Positions 1 through 7,537 of a DNA stretch of 14,498 nt are shown here, piece by piece. Position numbers and translations under genes: made by a program. The notes beneath the pieces were generated by a model that worked only from the letters and a program-made list of their open reading frames with translations, ran no database searches and had not been told where the DNA came from. The DNA lies in IMG/VR virus record IMGVR_UViG_2713896909_000003. One strand, 5' to 3'. Source of the stretch: a virus (lineage: Duplodnaviria > Heunggongvirae > Uroviricota > Caudoviricetes). Every line of letters starts with the position of its first letter. The stretch's first letter is position 1.

Positions 1-203
1 ACAAAATTTCAACGGGCATTGCCTACGGCACCTCCGCAGGCAGTGCTGGCTACTGGTTTTTACAGTGGCTTGATCAGGTCAGCCCGTCACAGTGGGCTGC
101 GATTGGAGTGCTGGGAAGTCTAGTTCTGGGCTTTTTGACTTATCTGACAAATCTGTATTTCAAAATCAGAGAAGACAGAAGAAAGGCTGCGAGAGGTGAA
201 TAA
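1..203 (+). CDS. S: Holin, class II pinholin (phage 21 S-like), 5'-truncated by window edge
   Basis: Frame ending at TAA 201-203 translates ...[66 protein letters not shown], which I recognise as the phage 21 S pinholin (two TM segments, charged C-tail). Stop overlaps the downstream start (TAATG). Confidence 0.85.
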
Positions 204-700
204 TGCCTCCATCATTACGCAAGGCTGTTGCAGCTGCTATTGGTGGCGGGGCTATTGCCATAGCGTCTGTGCTCATCACTGGTCCAAGTGGTAACGATGG
301 TCTGGAAGGTGTCAGCTACATACCATACAAAGATATCGTTGGTGTATGGACTGTATGTCACGGGCATACAGGAAAAGACATCATTCCCGGTAAAACGTAT
401 ACCGAAGCAGAATGCAAAGCCCTCCTGAATAAAGACCTTGCCACGGTCGCCAGACAAATTAACCCGTACATCAAAGTCGATATACCGGAAACAACGCGCG
501 GCGCTCTTTACTCGTTCGTTTACAACGTGGGCGCTGGTAATTTCAGAACATCGACGCTTCTTCGCAAAATAAACCAGGGCGATATCAAAGGCGCATGTGA
601 TCAGCTACGGCGCTGGACATACGCTGGCGGTAAGCAATGGAAAGGGCTGATGACTCGCCGTGAGATTGAGCGTGAAGTCTGTTTATGGGGGCAACAATGA
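203..700 (+). CDS. R: SAR endolysin, T4-lysozyme-like muramidase (phage 21 R-like)
   Basis: 165 aa ORF. N-terminal Gly/Ala-rich weakly hydrophobic segment ([20 protein letters not shown]) typical of a signal-anchor-release domain, followed by a Glu35/Asp44/Thr50 lysozyme-type triad ([17 protein letters not shown]). Immediately follows the holin gene. Confidence 0.88.
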
Positions 701-1164
701 GCAGAGTTACCGCGATTATCTCCACACTGGTTATCTGCATCATCGTCTGCCTGTTGTTGGCTGTTAATCATTACCGTGATAACGCCATCTCCTACAAAGA
801 GCAGCGTGACAAAAACGCCAGAGAGTTGAAGCTGGCGAACGCCACCATCGCTGACATGCAGCAGCGTCAGCGTGATGTTGCTGTGCTCGATGCAAAGTAC
901 TCGAGAGAATTAGCCAATGCGAAAGCTGAAAATGAAACTCTGCGCGCTGATGTTGCCGCTGGTCGTAAGCGCCTGCGGGTCAATGCCAGTTGCTCCGCAG
1001 CCGTGCGTGAAGCCACCGGACCCACCCGCGTGGATAATGCAACCAGCCCCCGACTGGAAGACACCGCTGAACGGGATTATTTCACCCTCAGAGAGCGGCT
1101 GATGACGATGCAGATGCAACTGGAAGGGGCACAGGAGTATATCCGCACTCAGTGCATTAAGTAG
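697..1164 (+). CDS. Rz: i-spanin Rz (inner-membrane spanin)
   Basis: [20 protein letters not shown]... has an N-terminal TM helix then a coiled-coil-like periplasmic domain, closely resembling lambda Rz. ATG 697 overlaps the R stop (ATGA). An in-frame ATG at 685 exists but the lambda-type start is 697. Confidence 0.85.
917..1102 (+). CDS. Rz1: o-spanin Rz1 (outer-membrane lipoprotein), embedded in Rz in the +1 frame
   Basis: 61 aa ORF wholly inside Rz: [22 protein letters not shown]... (signal peptide with lipobox-like VSAC) then Pro-rich mature part ([30 protein letters not shown]), very similar to lambda Rz1. Confidence 0.8.
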
Positions 1165-1206
1165 CCTTTTTATCGTGGTAAACATTTCGCAGGGTATGAG
1201 GTATTT

Positions 1207-1557
1207 ATGCCATCACTAATCCCACGCGCCTGCCGTAAGCGTGGATGTGCAGGCACAACAACAGACAGTTCTGGTTACTGCGATAAACATCGTGGCGAAG
1301 GATGGGTACAGCATCAACGCGGACTGAGTCGCCACCAGCGTGGCTATGGCTCGAAATGGGATGCCATACGTGCGCGCATACTGAAGCGTGATAATCATCT
1401 GTGTCAGAACTGCCTGCGCAATGGGAGAGCCGTTGAAGCCAGAACGGTGGACCACATCATTCCGAAAGCTCATGGTGGCACGGATGCAGACAGTAACCTG
1501 CAGAGTCTGTGCTGGCCCTGCCATAAAGCAAAAACAGCGCGCGAACGCATCAATTGA
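1207..1557 (+). CDS. HNH endonuclease (packaging-associated, HK97 gp74-like)
   Basis: 116 aa with paired CxxC zinc-finger cysteines and an HNH core (CQNC...DHIIPKAHGG...SNLQSLCWPCH). GAGG Shine-Dalgarno 7 nt upstream. Sits directly upstream of the terminase genes. Confidence 0.8.
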   Translation: MPSLIPRACRKRGCAGTTTDSSGYCDKHRGEGWVQHQRGLSRHQRGYGSKWDAIRARILKRDNHLCQNCLRNGRAVEARTVDHIIPKAHGGTDADSNLQSLCWPCHKAKTARERIN

Positions 1558-1705
1558 TAACAGTTCCCATCTGCAGGGGAGGGGCGGGTCAAATCTCTGC
1601 AACCCAGGCTGCTCAGGACCGCCGCCTGACCCTTCCTCACATCGCCGCAGGTTCGAAAACTTTTTTTTGGAAATGTGATTAAACGATTGATAGGTAAAAC
1701 CGATT
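1558..1705. other. Intergenic region between HNH and terminase small subunit; candidate cos/packaging site
   Basis: 148 bp non-coding gap, the only sizeable one in the window. Contains a G-rich tract (gcaggggaggggcgggtc, ~1573-1590) and a T9 run (~1662-1670). In HK97-like phages cos lies between the HNH gene and the small terminase gene. The exact cleavage site cannot be determined from sequence alone. Confidence 0.35.
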
Positions 1706-2188
1706 ATGCCAGGACCCCCGAAAACCCCGCCACGCCTGCATTTGATACGAGGCAACCCCTCAAAACGCCCCGTTAAAGACCCCAAAAAAACCGCTAAAAA
1801 GGATGAAAAAGGTCTCCCTAAAATTCCGCAACATTTAGGGGCACAGGGGAAGTACTGGTTCAGGCGAATGGCGGAAGAATTGAATGCGGAAGGGATCATT
1901 TCTCAGCTTGATGCGCGTGCACTCGAGTTACTGGTGGAAGCCTACACCGAATACCGGCATCACTGCGAAACACTCGATGTTGAGGGTTATACCTACCGCA
2001 CGGAAACGCAGAATGGCGATGTGATGATCAAGGCACATCCGGCTGCGGCGATGAAGGCGGATGCCTGGAAGCGGATCCGGGCGATGCTTGCAGAGTTTGG
2101 TATGTCACCGGCAAGCCGGGCTAAAGTAAATACCGCCGGACCGGATGATGTTGATCCACTGGCAGAGCTTTTAAAAGCGAGAGACTGA
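1706..2188 (+). CDS. Terminase small subunit (P27 family)
   Basis: 160 aa, basic Pro/Lys-rich N-terminus (MPGPPKTPPRLHLIRGNPSKRP...) typical of P27-family small terminases. Stop overlaps the large terminase start (TGATG). Weak Shine-Dalgarno. Confidence 0.75.
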   Translation: MPGPPKTPPRLHLIRGNPSKRPVKDPKKTAKKDEKGLPKIPQHLGAQGKYWFRRMAEELNAEGIISQLDARALELLVEAYTEYRHHCETLDVEGYTYRTETQNGDVMIKAHPAAAMKADAWKRIRAMLAEFGMSPASRAKVNTAGPDDVDPLAELLKARD

Positions 2189-3945
2189 TGGCAAAAGTGG
2201 CTGACGGGATCCGCTACGCCGAACGTGTTGTTGCAGGAGAAATTGTTGCTGGCGAATTTGTCCGTCTGGCCTGCCAGCGTTTTCTTGATGATCTGAAGTA
2301 CGGCGAAGAGCGGGGGATTTATTTCAGTGAACCCCGTGCACAACACATCCTGAATTTCTATAAATTTGTGCCTCATGTAAAAGGGGCGCTGGCAGGCCAG
2401 CCCATTGAGTTGATGGACTGGCATGTATTTATCCTCATTAATATTTTTGGCTTTGTCATTCCGCTGGTAAATGAAGAGACCGGGGAAGTTGTCATGCGCA
2501 GCGATGGCAGCGGACGCCCGGTGATGGTGCGCCGGTTCCGGACGGCCTACAACGAAGTTGCCCGTAAAAACGCAAAATCAACCCTGTCATCGGGTATCGG
2601 CCTGTATATGACGGGGGCAGATGGTGAAGGCGGTGCTGAGGTGTATTCAGCCGCAACCACGCGTGACCAGGCCAGAATTGTGTTTGAAGACGCCAAAAAT
2701 ATGGTCAGAAAAGCCCGGTCGACACTCGGGCGATTGTTTGATTTCAACAAGCTGGCGATCTACCAGGAGCAGAGCGCATCAAAATTTGAACCGCTTTCCT
2801 CGGATGCAAACAACCTGGACGGTCTGAACATCCACTGCGCCATTATTGATGAGCTGCATGCACATAAAACCCGCGACGTGTGGGACGTTCTGGAAACGGC
2901 AACCGGTGCCCGTCTGCAGTCCCTGTTATTTGGCATCACCACGGCTGGCTTTAACAAGGAAGGGATTTGTTACGAGCAACGCGATTACGCCATCAAGGTA
3001 TTGCGAGGCTATAACAGCGACGTGGAGGGCGCGGTAAAAGACGACTCCTACTTTGCAATTATTTACACGCTCGATGAGGGAGATGATCCGTTTGATGAAA
3101 CGGTCTGGCAGAAAGCGAATCCGGGCCTGGGCATCTGTAAGCGCTGGGATGATCTGCGTCGTCTGGCGAAAAAGGCGAAGGAGCAGGTCTCGGCGCGGGT
3201 GAATTTTTTCACGAAACACATGAATGTGTGGGTCACTGCCGAATCTGCCTGGATGGACATGATTAAGTGGGAGAAGTGCGAATACATTGCTCCACAGCAT
3301 GAGCTGAAAACATATCCCATGTGGGTCGGTGTAGACCTTGCTCATAAGATTGATATCTGTGCGGCGGCAAAACTCTGGCGAACCGATAACGGACATGTTC
3401 ATGCCGATTTTAAATTCTGGCTTCCGGAAGGACGGCTGGAGCGGTGCTCGCGGCAGATGGCGGAGCTTTACCGGAAATGGGCGGAGATGGATAAGCTTAT
3501 CCTGACGGATGGTGATGTTATCGATCATGCTCAGATAAAAAGTGATTTACTGGAATGGATTGGTGGTGAAAACCTCAGGGAACTGGGATTTGACCCGTGG
3601 AGCGCAATGCAGTTCAGTCTGGCGCTGGCTGAAGAAGGGATACCGCTGGTGGAAGTTCCGCAGACGGTCCGCAATCTGTCAGAGGCCATGAAGGAAACGG
3701 AATCACTGGTCTATGCCGGGCGTTTCCATCACAGCAATCACCCGGTTATGAACTGGATGATGTCTAACGTTACGGTAAAACCGGACAAAAACGACAATAT
3801 CTTCCCGAATAAATCCACGCCTGAAGCCAAAATCGACGGCCCTGTTGCGCTTTTTACGGCCATGAGCCGCTTTCTGGTAAATGGCGGGGACGTGAATGAC
3901 TTTCTGTCCACGCTTGATCCTGATGAGGACCTGTTAATTCTGTGA
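2188..3945 (+). CDS. Terminase large subunit (ATPase/nuclease)
   Basis: 585 aa ORF directly coupled to the small subunit gene. Hydrophobic stretch followed by DE (HCAIIDELHA) resembles a Walker B motif. Size and position fit an HK97-type large terminase. Confidence 0.85.
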   Translation: MAKVADGIRYAERVVAGEIVAGEFVRLACQRFLDDLKYGEERGIYFSEPRAQHILNFYKFVPHVKGALAGQPIELMDWHVFILINIFGFVIPLVNEETGEVVMRSDGSGRPVMVRRFRTAYNEVARKNAKSTLSSGIGLYMTGADGEGGAEVYSAATTRDQARIVFEDAKNMVRKARSTLGRLFDFNKLAIYQEQSASKFEPLSSDANNLDGLNIHCAIIDELHAHKTRDVWDVLETATGARLQSLLFGITTAGFNKEGICYEQRDYAIKVLRGYNSDVEGAVKDDSYFAIIYTLDEGDDPFDETVWQKANPGLGICKRWDDLRRLAKKAKEQVSARVNFFTKHMNVWVTAESAWMDMIKWEKCEYIAPQHELKTYPMWVGVDLAHKIDICAAAKLWRTDNGHVHADFKFWLPEGRLERCSRQMAELYRKWAEMDKLILTDGDVIDHAQIKSDLLEWIGGENLRELGFDPWSAMQFSLALAEEGIPLVEVPQTVRNLSEAMKETESLVYAGRFHHSNHPVMNWMMSNVTVKPDKNDNIFPNKSTPEAKIDGPVALFTAMSRFLVNGGDVNDFLSTLDPDEDLLIL

Positions 3946-3962
3946 AACAGCTTATTACTGAT

Positions 3963-4103
3963 ATGACCGGGCTGATCGGTTTCGGTCTGCTCACTGCTGG
4001 CGTTTATCTGTATGCAGGTCTGCCAGCGTCTCTGATGTTGTCTGGCTGTTTGTTGCTGCTTTATGCACTGGTGGTGTCCATGAGGAGAAAACATGCTTCT
4101 TGA
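3963..4103 (+). CDS. Hypothetical small membrane protein (46 aa, two predicted TM segments); not in supplied ORF track
   Basis: ATG 3963 to TGA 4101-4103 gives MTGLIGFGLLTAGVYLYAGLPASLMLSGCLLLLYALVVSMRRKHAS: two hydrophobic stretches and a basic tail. An in-frame GTG at 3942 would give 53 aa. It fills the terminase-portal gap exactly and overlaps the portal start by 11 nt. No strong Shine-Dalgarno, so coding status is uncertain. Confidence 0.3.
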   Translation: MTGLIGFGLLTAGVYLYAGLPASLMLSGCLLLLYALVVSMRRKHAS

Positions 4104-5319
4104 TGCTCTGTTTCGCAGTGAGCCTCTGGAAAATCCCTCGATTCCGGTAACCGGAGAGGCCGCTGAGACGGATAATATTTTTGCCCGGGAAGTGTATGTC
4201 AGTCCGGAAACATCCATGAAGCTGGCTGCTGTCTATGCCTGTATTTATGTTATTTCATCCAGTGTGGCTCAGATGCCCCTGCATGTGATGCGAAAAACGA
4301 ATGAGCATGTTCAGCCGGCACGCGATCATCCGTTGTTCTGGCTCGTTCATGATGAACCTAATGCCTGGCAGACCAGCTATAAGTGGCGGGAACTGAAGCA
4401 GCGTCATGTGCTGGGGTGGGGCAATGGTTATACGTGGGTAAAACGCAATCGTCGTGGCGAGGTTACCAGCCTTGAATGCTGTATGCCATGGGAAACCACG
4501 TTACTTAACACCGGTGGGCGTCATACTTACGGGGTGTATAACGAAGAGGGGGCATTTGCGGTAAGTCCGGACGACATGATCCATATCAGGGCGCTGGGAA
4601 ACAATCAGAAAATGGGACTGAGCCCGATCATGCAGCATGCTGAAACCATTGGTATGGGAATGAGTGGCCAGCAGTATACCAGCGCCTTTTTTAACGGTAA
4701 TGCCCGTCCTGCCGGTATTATTTCTGTGAAAAATGAACTGAACGAACAGAGCTGGGGCAGGCTTAAAAATATGTGGCAGCGGGCGGTGACAGCGCTTCGC
4801 AGCCAGGAAAATAAAACCATGCTGCTGCCTGCGCAACTGGATTACCGCGCTCTGACAGTTTCTCCGGTGGATGCTCAGATCATTGATATGACCAAGCTGA
4901 ACAGGTCGATGATTGCCGGGATTTTTAATGTCCCGGCGCACATGATTAATGACCTGGAAAAAGCCACATTTTCGAATATTACGCAGCAGGCGATTCAGTT
5001 TGTTCGCTACACGATGATGCCCTGGGTTGCGAACTGGGAGCAGGAGCTTAACCGTCGCCTGTTTACCCGTACAGAACGGGCTGCCGGGTATTACGTTCGT
5101 TTCAACCTCACGGGGTTGCTCCGTGGGACCCCACAGGAGCGTGCGCAGTTCTATCACTTTGCCATTACAGATGGCTGGATGAGCCGGAATGAAGCCAGGG
5201 CATTTGAGGATATGAACCCGGTTGACGGTCTGGATGAAATGCTGGTCAGCGTAAATGCAGCAAATCCGTTGAATAACTTTAAAGATACAAAAGGCAAAGA
5301 GGAAAAGAACGATGAATGA
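4093..5319 (+). CDS. Portal protein (HK97 family)
   Basis: 408 aa. GAGGAG Shine-Dalgarno at 4082-4087. Position after the large terminase and size fit an HK97-type portal. Confidence 0.85.
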   Translation: MLLDALFRSEPLENPSIPVTGEAAETDNIFAREVYVSPETSMKLAAVYACIYVISSSVAQMPLHVMRKTNEHVQPARDHPLFWLVHDEPNAWQTSYKWRELKQRHVLGWGNGYTWVKRNRRGEVTSLECCMPWETTLLNTGGRHTYGVYNEEGAFAVSPDDMIHIRALGNNQKMGLSPIMQHAETIGMGMSGQQYTSAFFNGNARPAGIISVKNELNEQSWGRLKNMWQRAVTALRSQENKTMLLPAQLDYRALTVSPVDAQIIDMTKLNRSMIAGIFNVPAHMINDLEKATFSNITQQAIQFVRYTMMPWVANWEQELNRRLFTRTERAAGYYVRFNLTGLLRGTPQERAQFYHFAITDGWMSRNEARAFEDMNPVDGLDEMLVSVNAANPLNNFKDTKGKEEKNDE

Positions 5320-5911
5320 CCGTGAAACGCGCTGTTACAGCGGGGAGGTGCGGGCGGAACAATATGATAATGCCCCGACCCACATTCTGGGGTATGGCTC
5401 GGTATTTAACAGTCGTTCAGAACCTCTGTGGGGATTTCGTGAAATCATCAAGCCGGGGGCTTTTGACGATGTACTGAATGATGATGTACGTGGCTTGTTT
5501 AATCATGATCCTAATTTCATTCTCGGACGAAGTTCTGCCGGCACGTTGTCATTGTCGGTGGATGAACGCGGTTTACGTTATGACATTGTTGCACCGGATA
5601 CTCCGACTATTTGTGACCTGGTGCTGTCTCCAATGTTGCGTGGTGACATTAATCAGTCCTCATTCGCGTTTCGTGTCGCCCGTGATGGAGAGAGCTGGTA
5701 TGAAGACGACGAGGGGATTGTTATCCGGGAAATCACGCGCATTTCCCGTCTGTATGACGTCAGCCCGGTGACATATCCGGCCTATCAGGACGCAGACTCT
5801 GGTGTCCGCTCAATGAAAGCCTGGCAGGAAGCGCGGGCGAGTGGTGCGCTGAAGAAAGCTGTTAATGAACGAATGGCGCGTGAGCGCCTTTTGACCCTTC
5901 TGAATGCATAA
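5312..5911 (+). CDS. Prohead maturation protease (HK97 gp4-like)
   Basis: 199 aa. Start overlaps the portal stop by 8 nt. Contains candidate catalytic His (GLFNHDPN) and Ser (INQSSFAF) in the expected order, and sits between portal and capsid genes. Confidence 0.8.
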   Translation: MNDRETRCYSGEVRAEQYDNAPTHILGYGSVFNSRSEPLWGFREIIKPGAFDDVLNDDVRGLFNHDPNFILGRSSAGTLSLSVDERGLRYDIVAPDTPTICDLVLSPMLRGDINQSSFAFRVARDGESWYEDDEGIVIREITRISRLYDVSPVTYPAYQDADSGVRSMKAWQEARASGALKKAVNERMARERLLTLLNA

Positions 5912-5925
5912 GGATACTACTGACG

Positions 5926-7143
5926 ATGAAACTTCATGAGATGAAGCAAAAACGAAACACCATTGCAAAGGATATGCGTGCACTGCATGAAAAAATTGGT
6001 GATAACGCATGGACTGATGAGCAACGGGCAGAGTGGAACAGGGCGAAAGCTGAGCTGGATGCGCTGGATGAGCAAATCGCCCGTGAAGAAGAGTTGCGCC
6101 GTCAGGATCAGGCATATGTGGATGAGTCCGGGCCGGAAGAGCGCCAGAATAATGAGGCGGAGAACGGGAAAAAGGCGGTGGAAGAGAAGCGCGCTGCGGC
6201 ATTTAACCGTTTTCTGCGTGCCGGATTTGCAGAACTGAATGCTGAAGAGCGTAATCTGATGCGTGAACTGCGGGCTCAGAGTGTAACAACGGATTCTCAG
6301 GGCGGATATACGGTGCCCACGCAGATGCGTAACAAAATCATTGACACCATGAAGGCTTATGGCGGGATTGCCAGTGTGGCGCAACTTCTGACCACGTCAA
6401 CCGGGCAGGATATCACCTGGTCAACGTCTGACGGCACGACTGAAGAGGGCGAACTGCTGGCGGAAAATACAGCCGCAACGGAACAGGATGTGACGTTCGG
6501 GACTGCTATTCTGGGGGCTAAAAAGCTGTCATCAAAAATAATTCGTGTGTCCAATGAGCTGCTCCAGGACAGTGGGGTAGATATTGAATCTTATCTGGCA
6601 AACCGTATTGCCCAGCGTATTGGTCGTGGAGAGGCAAAATATCTGGTTCAGGGGACCGGAACGGGATCACCGTTACAGCCAAAAGGGCTGGCAGCGTCGG
6701 TGACGGGAACTATCCAGACTGCAGCCTCTGCCGCTTTCACCTGGAAAGAAATGAATGCCCTGAAACATGCCATTGATCCGGCATATCGTGGTGGGCCGAA
6801 ATACCGCTGGGCATTCAATGATGCCACATTGCAGACTATTGAAGAGATGGAGGATGGACAGAAACGCCCGTTATGGCTGCCGGATATTGCAGGCGGTACG
6901 CCGGCTACTGTGCTGGGGATCCCTTATGTTATTGATCAGGCTATTGACGGGATTGGTACCGGGAAAAAATTCATTTTCCTGGGGGATTTCAACCGCTTTA
7001 TCATTCGCCGCGTTACTTATATGGAACTGAAACGTCTGGTTGAGCGTTATGCTGAGTTTGATCAGGTGGCATTTCTGGCTTTCCATCGTTTTGACTGTGT
7101 GCTGGAAGATGTGGCAGCCATTAAGGCGCTTACTGGCAAATAA
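5926..7143 (+). CDS. Major capsid protein, HK97 type, with N-terminal delta (scaffolding) domain
   Basis: 405 aa. The first ~110 aa are charged and coiled-coil-like (EQRAEWNRAKAELDALDEQIAREEELRRQ...), followed by a capsid-type body. AAGGA Shine-Dalgarno upstream. No separate scaffold gene is present. Confidence 0.85.
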   Translation: MKLHEMKQKRNTIAKDMRALHEKIGDNAWTDEQRAEWNRAKAELDALDEQIAREEELRRQDQAYVDESGPEERQNNEAENGKKAVEEKRAAAFNRFLRAGFAELNAEERNLMRELRAQSVTTDSQGGYTVPTQMRNKIIDTMKAYGGIASVAQLLTTSTGQDITWSTSDGTTEEGELLAENTAATEQDVTFGTAILGAKKLSSKIIRVSNELLQDSGVDIESYLANRIAQRIGRGEAKYLVQGTGTGSPLQPKGLAASVTGTIQTAASAAFTWKEMNALKHAIDPAYRGGPKYRWAFNDATLQTIEEMEDGQKRPLWLPDIAGGTPATVLGIPYVIDQAIDGIGTGKKFIFLGDFNRFIIRRVTYMELKRLVERYAEFDQVAFLAFHRFDCVLEDVAAIKALTGK

Positions 7144-7164
7144 CCACACGTTGTTCTGTTACAG

Positions 7165-7187
7165 ACCGCGCCGACGCGGTTTTTTTA
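7165..7187 (+). terminator. Rho-independent terminator after the major capsid gene
   Basis: Stem accgcg (7165-7170), loop ccga, stem cgcggt (7175-7180), then a T-run (7181-7186), 22 nt after the capsid stop. Confidence 0.6.
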
Positions 7188-7219
7188 TGCCCGCACAGTG
7201 TTGCGGGCAGGAGTTTCTG

Positions 7220-7537
7220 ATGGCAGCAATAGTTGAAAAACTCAGGGCGCAGTGCCGTATTGATACAGATGATGCAACTGATGATGAGTTACTGATGCTG
7301 TATTTCCGGGCGGCCTGCCGCAAGGCAGAAAATTTTATCAACCGTAAGCTTTATGAGGAGACGGTGCCGGAAGGTGATCCTGAAGGGGTGCTTATAGCTG
7401 ATGATGTTTTGCTGGCGCTCATGTTGCTGGTCGGACACTGGTACGAAAACCGGGAAAATTCCTCAGATGTCAGCAAGGCACCAGTCCCGTTTGGTTTTTC
7501 TTCTCTGCTGGAGCCTTATCGTTTTATTCCTTTGTAG
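7220..7537 (+). CDS. Head-tail connector protein (gp6-like)
   Basis: 105 aa from ATG 7220 with AGGAG Shine-Dalgarno 6 nt upstream: MAAIVEKLRAQCRIDTDDATDDELLMLYFRAA... The ORF track extends this frame to 7040, but that extension overlaps the capsid gene and terminator and is not credible. Confidence 0.75.
   Translation: MAAIVEKLRAQCRIDTDDATDDELLMLYFRAACRKAENFINRKLYEETVPEGDPEGVLIADDVLLALMLLVGHWYENRENSSDVSKAPVPFGFSSLLEPYRFIPL

Follow-up and report, generated by a model that had tools for sequence, protein, structure and literature searches.

The window analyzed here is a 14,498-nucleotide stretch of viral DNA (IMG/VR record IMGVR_UViG_2713896909_000003), and its subject of interest is a small gene lodged between the genes for the large terminase subunit (TerL; 2188..3945, + strand, with Pfam TerL_ATPase and TerL_nuclease) and the HK97-family portal protein (4093..5319, + strand; Pfam PF04860), which stand 147 nucleotides (nt) apart. 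Read from the sequence and the list of open reading frames (ORFs), the small gene occupies 3942..4103 on the + strand—53 codons and a stop, from GTG 3942—and its translation is MKQLITDMTGLIGFGLLTAGVYLYAGLPASLMLSGCLLLLYALVVSMRRKHAS; an internal ATG at 3963 gives a shorter form of 46 amino acids (aa). Both neighbors are overlapped. At the 5′ end the GTG (3942-3944) and the TGA stop codon of TerL (3943-3945) share the sequence GTGA (3942..3945, + strand), and at the 3′ end 11 nt are shared with the portal gene (4093..4103, + strand), whose start is ATG 4093 and within whose conserved codons for L-D the small-gene stop TGA (4101-4103) falls. An earlier note on this DNA had described the ORF with both of its possible starts, the gap and the portal overlap, and all of these coordinates are correct.

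By chance alone, 53 codons would be open with a probability of (61/64)^53 = 0.08; such a frame is not rare, and the case for a gene therefore rests on conservation. This was examined in 80 viral contigs whose portals are 82–100% identical to that of the window. The small ORF is intact in all 80, so that the frameshifts and stops the earlier note had considered are not seen in this frame; 78 contigs have the same 162-nt geometry and two carry 51-codon variants, and the (A/G)TGA junction with TerL is present in the 78 as well as in both variants. Among the 42 distinct sequences (799 pairs), the median ratio of nonsynonymous to synonymous differences (pN/pS) is 0.35 in the ORF's own frame, compared with 0.97 in the +1 frame and 2.2 in the +2 frame; the median for the N-terminal region of the portal is 0.14. 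The synonymous bias that the earlier note had proposed looking for in relatives is present throughout, with pN lower than pS in 799 of 799 pairs, and mismatches per codon position (0.36/0.20/0.53) are fewest at position 2. Six more diverged phages—SfV, Morganella IME1369_02, Edwardsiella EPP-1, Klebsiella MC05, EcoS-733R5 and Salmonella F1055—keep a 52–53-codon ORF and both overlaps at 46–62% protein and about 60–69% nucleotide identity. Conservation is thus not at the nucleotide level only, as had also been considered: the protein pattern is maintained where nucleotide identity drops to about 60%. These results strongly support the view that 3942..4103 truly encodes a protein, as part of the late head operon.

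The start of the gene can also be placed by comparison. An ATG stands at the position of GTG 3942 in 58 of the 80 related loci, K2 and D7 are nearly invariant, and Met8 (ATG 3963) is confined to the E. coli (Escherichia coli) clade, the residue being V, I, L or A elsewhere. Because relatives begin with ATG at the position of GTG 3942, the product is probably the 53-aa form, and the 46-aa form, which the earlier note had put first, is the less likely of the two.

Two other readings of the ORF had been put forward in the earlier note, a moron-type membrane peptide and a non-coding spacer left open by chance. The moron is taken here in its classic sense, recently acquired and independently expressed, and an RNA structure is considered along with the spacer. 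The chance probability of the open frame and the absence of the gene from HK97 suit these readings, but the other evidence goes against both. Classic morons have their own signals, a foreign composition and a sporadic distribution. Here, by contrast, no + strand promoter-like or terminator-like site is found in 3400-4400, the G+C content of the small gene (0.49) is like that of its neighbors (0.51–0.52), no Shine-Dalgarno (SD) sequence precedes the gene in 36 of 42 distinct loci, and the gene is carried by every one of the 80 portal relatives. An RNA element was tried and rejected, since the region has no family match in Rfam and an unexceptional RNA fold z-score of −0.88. The open spacer is refuted by the frame-specific purifying selection, by homologues in Ralstonia and Vibrio phages and in alphaproteobacterial contigs, by the stops that relatives have in the antisense frame, and by this lack of an Rfam or RNA-fold signal. 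A recent moron or an open spacer is effectively excluded.

Several further candidates at the junction were rejected. An antisense ORF of 159 aa (3738..4217, − strand) spans the whole TerL–portal junction; because it is open only in the window's clade and has stops in relatives, it is regarded as a by-product of sense-strand coding. Fusion by programmed frameshifting, either −1 from TerL into the small protein or +1 from the small protein into the portal, was discarded, as relatives do not conserve a slippery sequence at either of the two junctions. Database "fusions" of this kind (e.g., P0034, P0060 and P0126) are single-nucleotide-error variants from small clusters.

The small protein matches the profile of PHROG 7105 at 9.4e-20, with residues 1–52 aligned to positions 1–52 of 52, and more weakly that of PHROG 502 ("membrane protein") at 1.3e-6. 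A different E. coli prophage (L003) has a 60-aa protein in this TerL–portal slot for which the order is reversed, with PHROG 502 at 8.8e-26 and PHROG 7105 at 5e-4. A profile search of 5.8 billion proteins recovered 244 clusters at 90% identity, mostly of 52–53 aa and from many Enterobacterales; of the 122 homologues retrieved first, 104 are of that length. When 1.84 billion representatives (50% identity) were searched with a profile and no filter, 433 matches at E≤0.001 were obtained, and among the 150 of these that are listed nearly all are 45–70 aa long and match over their full length. The 433 include the PHROG 502-type "WLIYPPAGF" forms, and because these appear in the same profile search the PHROG 7105- and PHROG 502-type proteins constitute one superfamily. 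The listed members have D7, G13, G20 and G35 in common, and most have a basic tail. Ralstonia phage Dina gp25 (72 bits) and a protein of Vibrio phage K266 (38 bits) are family members, and homologues extend to alphaproteobacterial contigs; a single-sequence word-indexed protein search returned only near-identical E. coli and Shigella entries.

The gene is already catalogued, and nothing about it is new as a gene call. The earlier note's description of the ORF as unannotated holds for the 60-aa ORF track and not for public records, where RefSeq E. coli prophages, phage Evi and several vB_EcoS phages annotate it as a "hypothetical protein" and PHROG 7105 and PHROG 502 take it in. A full-length match to window positions 3700-4400 is found in 630 of 5426 complete genomes, and the gene stands as a hypothetical protein in hundreds of E. 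coli genomes. Some individual records do lack the call: in that of SfV (U82619.2; L004) the small gene at 2289-2450 is left unannotated, and the portal is annotated at 2392-3666, starting 48 nt upstream of the conserved start (GTG 2440) used by relatives.

The small protein is nearly all hydrophobic, with a grand average of hydropathy (GRAVY) of 0.99, and AlphaFold2, run with a 50-sequence alignment, predicts helices at residues 2–25 and 27–52 with a break at residue 26 (mean predicted local distance difference test score, pLDDT, 84). Hydropathy and column composition place the first predicted transmembrane helix at residues 8–25 (3963..4016, + strand), within the first model helix; it carries the conserved residues G10, G13, G20, Y/W22 and L23, and is preceded directly by the near-invariant D7 and followed by G26, which is also conserved. 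A four-residue turn, G26-L-P-A (4017..4028, + strand), is predicted to face the periplasm, and charged residues are missing from this loop in 96% of close-family and 71% of superfamily members. The second predicted transmembrane helix (residues 30–46; 4029..4079, + strand), placed by the model, hydropathy and column composition, has an invariant G35 and small residues at 42 and 46 (A42, A46); the i/i+7 spacing of small residues suggests tight helix–helix packing. The tail that follows, MRRKHAS (4080..4100, + strand), is basic (mean net charge of the C-terminal tail: close family, +2.7; superfamily, +1.8), and its codons also hold the portal SD and the opening codons of the portal gene; the N-terminus is close to neutral. 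The two hydrophobic helices and basic C-terminal tail described in the earlier note are thus borne out, and a 53-residue protein with two such helices, a four-residue turn and a basic tail is strongly supported. By the positive-inside rule we infer an inner-membrane hairpin with both termini in the cytoplasm. No Pfam family (even at E≤10), no relevant NCBIfam family and no PADLOC match was found for the small protein; a sequence-profile search of the Protein Data Bank (PDB) found nothing, and Foldseek comparison of the AlphaFold2 model with the PDB gave noise only (E>6).

The two overlaps bear on how the gene would be expressed. The GTGA at 3942..3945 is a predicted termination-reinitiation coupling signal. 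A strong SD-like word precedes the portal start from inside the small gene in 42 of 42 distinct loci, and in the window this is AGGAG at 4083-4087, within the MRRK codons. With the portal ribosome-binding site in its last codons and its stop 11 nt into the portal gene, the small gene should be read with its two neighbors as a coupled series. The L003 type differs at its 5′ end, where the small gene has its own SD and lies 12 nt beyond TerL. The pattern as a whole points to reinitiation after TerL, a low copy number, late-only expression and onward coupling to the portal; the copy number should be low, at or below that of TerL, because the start would be by reinitiation of ribosomes that have finished TerL.

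Given such coupling, the ORF might serve to carry ribosomes from the TerL stop to the portal start and so set the portal:TerL ratio, the peptide itself having little or no function. The start–stop overlaps at both ends, the position of the portal SD inside the ORF and the moderate constraint on the peptide (pN/pS 0.35 versus 0.14 for the portal) agree with this, as does the fact that HK97, phi2 and Vibrio 1221 couple TerL and portal directly with nothing between. It does not account for the conservation of D7, G13, G20 and G35 from enterobacterial phages to alphaproteobacterial contigs, nor for the near-constant length and two-helix pattern across 433 clusters at 50% identity. The L003 type, moreover, has the SD and 12-nt gap noted above, and in three loci (L098, L107 and L108; see below) the gene is kept without an adjacent TerL. 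We regard a coupling ORF with a dispensable peptide as improbable.

The association of the small gene with its neighbors was examined in close relatives by comparing the identities of TerL, small protein and portal, all with reference to the window. A variety of combinations is observed. In L024 the TerL is 31% identical, the small protein 98% and the portal 100%; in SfV-type loci the values are 36–37%, 40–68% and 82–87%; and in other groups a TerL of 72%, 90% or 99% identity accompanies small proteins of 55–98% and portals of 85–100%. L003 is the converse case, its TerL being 98% identical over 574 aa and its small protein and portal 29% and 28%. The L003 TerL differs from that of the window in the last 11 residues only, with the recombination joint some 55 nt upstream of the TerL stop codon.

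This joint sets off a short C-terminal tail of TerL. The last 15 codons of the window gene (3898..3942, + strand) encode DFLSTLDPDEDLLIL, which is conserved on TerLs that are 36–37% identical overall, and the pattern DFLS(T/S)LDPD(E/D)DLLIL is common to otherwise unrelated TerLs that are paired with a window-type portal. The L003-type portal pairs with a TerL tail ending in ...GIRSL. Because the TerL tail follows the portal type, the mosaic unit is TerL tail, small gene and portal together. Such a pattern is consistent with a short tail that docks on the portal and is exchanged in one piece with the head module.

Some additional observations were made on these loci. The TerL of L003, 98% identical to that of the window, ends in ...SEHLVSVGIRSL, a tail common to unrelated TerLs with an L003-type portal; the sites used for the comparison of TerL tails are 3200-3246 in L003, 2245-2292 in L004, and near 3945-3989 in L099 and L100. 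In L054 the protease and capsid are 100% identical to those of the window, the portal 87%, the small protein 53% and TerL 37%, which implies that a recombination joint lies within the portal gene or directly behind it. In L001 (E. coli KFu019, 1-7246) the TerL upstream of the small gene is a 5′-truncated pseudogene, directly preceded by the capsid, protease, portal, connector, HNH, small terminase (TerS) and TerL genes of a second and different HK97-like element; this arrangement looks like a tandem or rearranged prophage junction.

Among remote members of the family that could be placed on contigs, all eight abut or lie just upstream of a PF04860 portal gene. In L098, L107 and L108 the stop of the small gene (here a 67-aa gene) overlaps the portal start in all three, and in L098 and L107 unrelated genes lie between TerL and the small gene. 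These three contigs are of alphaproteobacterial type, and host-like genes stand upstream of the small gene (L098, 2678-4204; L107, 687-3204; L108, 915-2366), namely those for an ABC substrate-binding protein, a Trans_reg_C/TPR regulator and ApbA. L108 has two additional ORFs upstream (428-807), another of 67 aa and then one of 58 aa. These loci may be decayed or domesticated head clusters.

Comparison therefore shows that the small gene, as judged from gene order and sequence identity, belongs to the portal/head module and not to the terminase module or the lysis cassette. The portal gene is its constant downstream neighbor. The lysis cassettes with which it co-occurs are diverse: a P21-type SAR (signal-anchor-release) endolysin in the window, a different S/lysozyme set in Evi, and Phage_holin_3_7 with Peptidase_M15_4 in L099. 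Phage Evi has a near-identical head module behind its different lysis cassette.

As a whole, the window represents the late region of an HK97-like temperate phage of E. coli. The lysis cassette spans 203-1164 and contains the P21-type SAR endolysin (lysozyme; 203-700) and Rz (685-1164). The endolysin has an N-terminal signal-anchor-release sequence of the phage 21 type, and the holin lies upstream of the window. An HNH endonuclease (1207-1557) and a P27-family small terminase (1706-2188) come before TerL, and the portal is followed by an S78 protease, the major capsid gene and tail genes.

The principal alternative to a portal-linked role is that the small protein is a late membrane effector independent of the portal, tuning lysis timing as a holin or antiholin accessory that disturbs membrane potential, or acting in late superinfection exclusion by keeping the DNA of incoming phage from entering, its place beside the portal being historical. 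Its two helices, both ends predicted to be cytoplasmic, and its charged C-terminal tail are like those of class II holins, and its fast divergence relative to the portal would suit a conflict-type or loosely constrained protein. Lysis genes embedded in morphogenesis or packaging operons occur in T7 and P2. Against such a role, however, there is no match to a Pfam holin family at E≤10 and none in PADLOC, and the gene lies outside the lysis cassette, about 2.8 kb downstream of it, and accompanies no fewer than three different lysis cassettes. Holins need to accumulate in quantity, whereas reinitiation without an SD predicts low expression; there is also no promoter for expression in the lysogen, and the Met1/Met8 pair, which could mimic a dual start, is not conserved. 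A late effector would leave the deep positional conservation beside the portal unexplained, and the portal linkage does not favor an exclusion or lysis-timing role. We regard this alternative as possible, though less likely than not.

The small gene is not found in all phages with an HK97-type head. It is absent from HK97, AsXd-1 (Aeromonas), phi2 (Pseudomonas), Mcat31 (Moraxella), Javan630 (Streptococcus), TMCBR4 (Caulobacter) and Vibrio 1221, in which TerL and portal abut or leave a short empty gap; in HK97 they abut, so the earlier note was right to place the ORF outside the canonical HK97 gene set. In Xanthomonas phage MK21 a homing endonuclease occupies the TerL–portal slot. Bacillus phage phIS3501 (L106, JQ062992.1) has an unannotated 53-aa two-helix ORF with a C-terminal RR at 2218-2379, in a TerL–portal gap of 189 nt. 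As a family member this ORF was rejected, its score of 4.7 bits equaling that of an unrelated control, and it is a positional analogue only. As with SfV, the record offers a lesson in annotation, a two-helix small ORF in the TerL–portal slot having been left without a call in both phages.

The explanation that we prefer combines a coding gene, a membrane hairpin, translational coupling, membership of the portal module and a portal-linked function, and we put the probability of this whole at roughly 45%. Ribosomes finishing TerL would reinitiate at GTG 3942, through the GTGA overlap and usually with no SD, so that TerL, the small gene and the portal would be translated as a coupled series. The product would sit in the inner membrane as a hairpin with its N- and C-termini in the cytoplasm, and might work with the portal at the cytoplasmic membrane in prohead initiation or packaging. 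Present in few copies, it may tether the portal or prohead or serve as a cofactor in its assembly; this portal-linked function is our best guess, made tentatively and by analogy, and taken by itself is less likely than not. More doubtful is the specific proposal that a large branch of HK97-type phages of gamma-, beta- and alphaproteobacteria uses a dedicated inner-membrane hairpin to recruit or nucleate the portal, or the packaging complex of TerL tail and portal, at the membrane. A precedent is found in T4, whose membrane-bound portal initiator requires the viral chaperone gp40 (PMC9958956).

Several points weigh against a portal-linked membrane function. The predicted topology is based on charge and hydropathy only. 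Adjacency and overlap by themselves favor co-inheritance with the portal, and linkage is no proof of interaction. Divergence is much faster in the small protein than in the portal (40–68% identity versus 83–88% for the portals), which is unexpected for a tightly co-adapted partner. Because many HK97-type phages have no such gene, HK97 itself among them, it is not a general requirement of HK97-type assembly, and we know of no membrane assembly or initiation of HK97-like proheads. Full-text literature searches turned up no paper on the gene or on other members of the family, and none for its accession numbers or PHROG identifiers; articles on SPP1, and on genes inserted between terminase and portal in actinophages, were set aside as not relevant.

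If the more doubtful proposal, recruitment of the portal by a membrane hairpin, is correct, head assembly or packaging in these phages would be membrane-associated, as in T4, a condition not known for HK97-like phages; and if the small protein acts on the portal, HK97-type heads would seem to pass through a membrane step, in assembly or packaging, that is absent from the model phage HK97. Comparison adds that this is one of few non-canonical genes fixed in the TerL–portal junction across very distant HK97-type head modules, and that neither exchanges of terminase or lysis cassette nor insertions of unrelated genes part it from the portal. The gene is carried by the inducible phages Evi, PhiR49_2 and SfV, and its function is thus readily testable.

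Of the systems with which the small gene can be compared, the closest in sequence are PHROG 7105, which is of unknown function, and PHROG 502. The window protein matches both profiles, and both forms are recovered in one profile search; as sequence clusters, the two show resemblance, not function. Class II holins or pinholins such as S21 of phage 21 share with the window protein a size class, two transmembrane helices, termini predicted to be cytoplasmic and a charged C-terminus. The window protein differs from them in having no profile match, a place outside the lysis cassette, no conserved dual start and a predicted low expression, and in its independence of lysis type; comparison with an S21 sequence used as a control gives a score of −1.8 bits.

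Morons and superinfection-exclusion proteins, such as HK97 gp15, offer the likeness of a small membrane protein encoded among virion genes in an HK97-like temperate phage, but the window gene has no promoter or terminator of its own, has an operon-native composition, is present in all portal relatives and is coupled on both sides. The gene for lambda gpW occupies the same slot, between A (TerL) and B (portal). gpW is a soluble head–tail joining protein, however, whereas the window protein is almost wholly hydrophobic and has no match to a connector family in a PHROG scan.

The comparison that bears most directly on the proposed function is with T4 gp40. A PHROG scan of the small protein found no assembly-chaperone family, and the likeness to gp40 is one of mechanism hypothesis only. 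gp40 is a small phage factor linked to the portal, and the T4 initiator assembles on the inner membrane (PMC9958956); the window protein, beside it, is predicted to be an inner-membrane protein and appears genetically inseparable from the portal gene.

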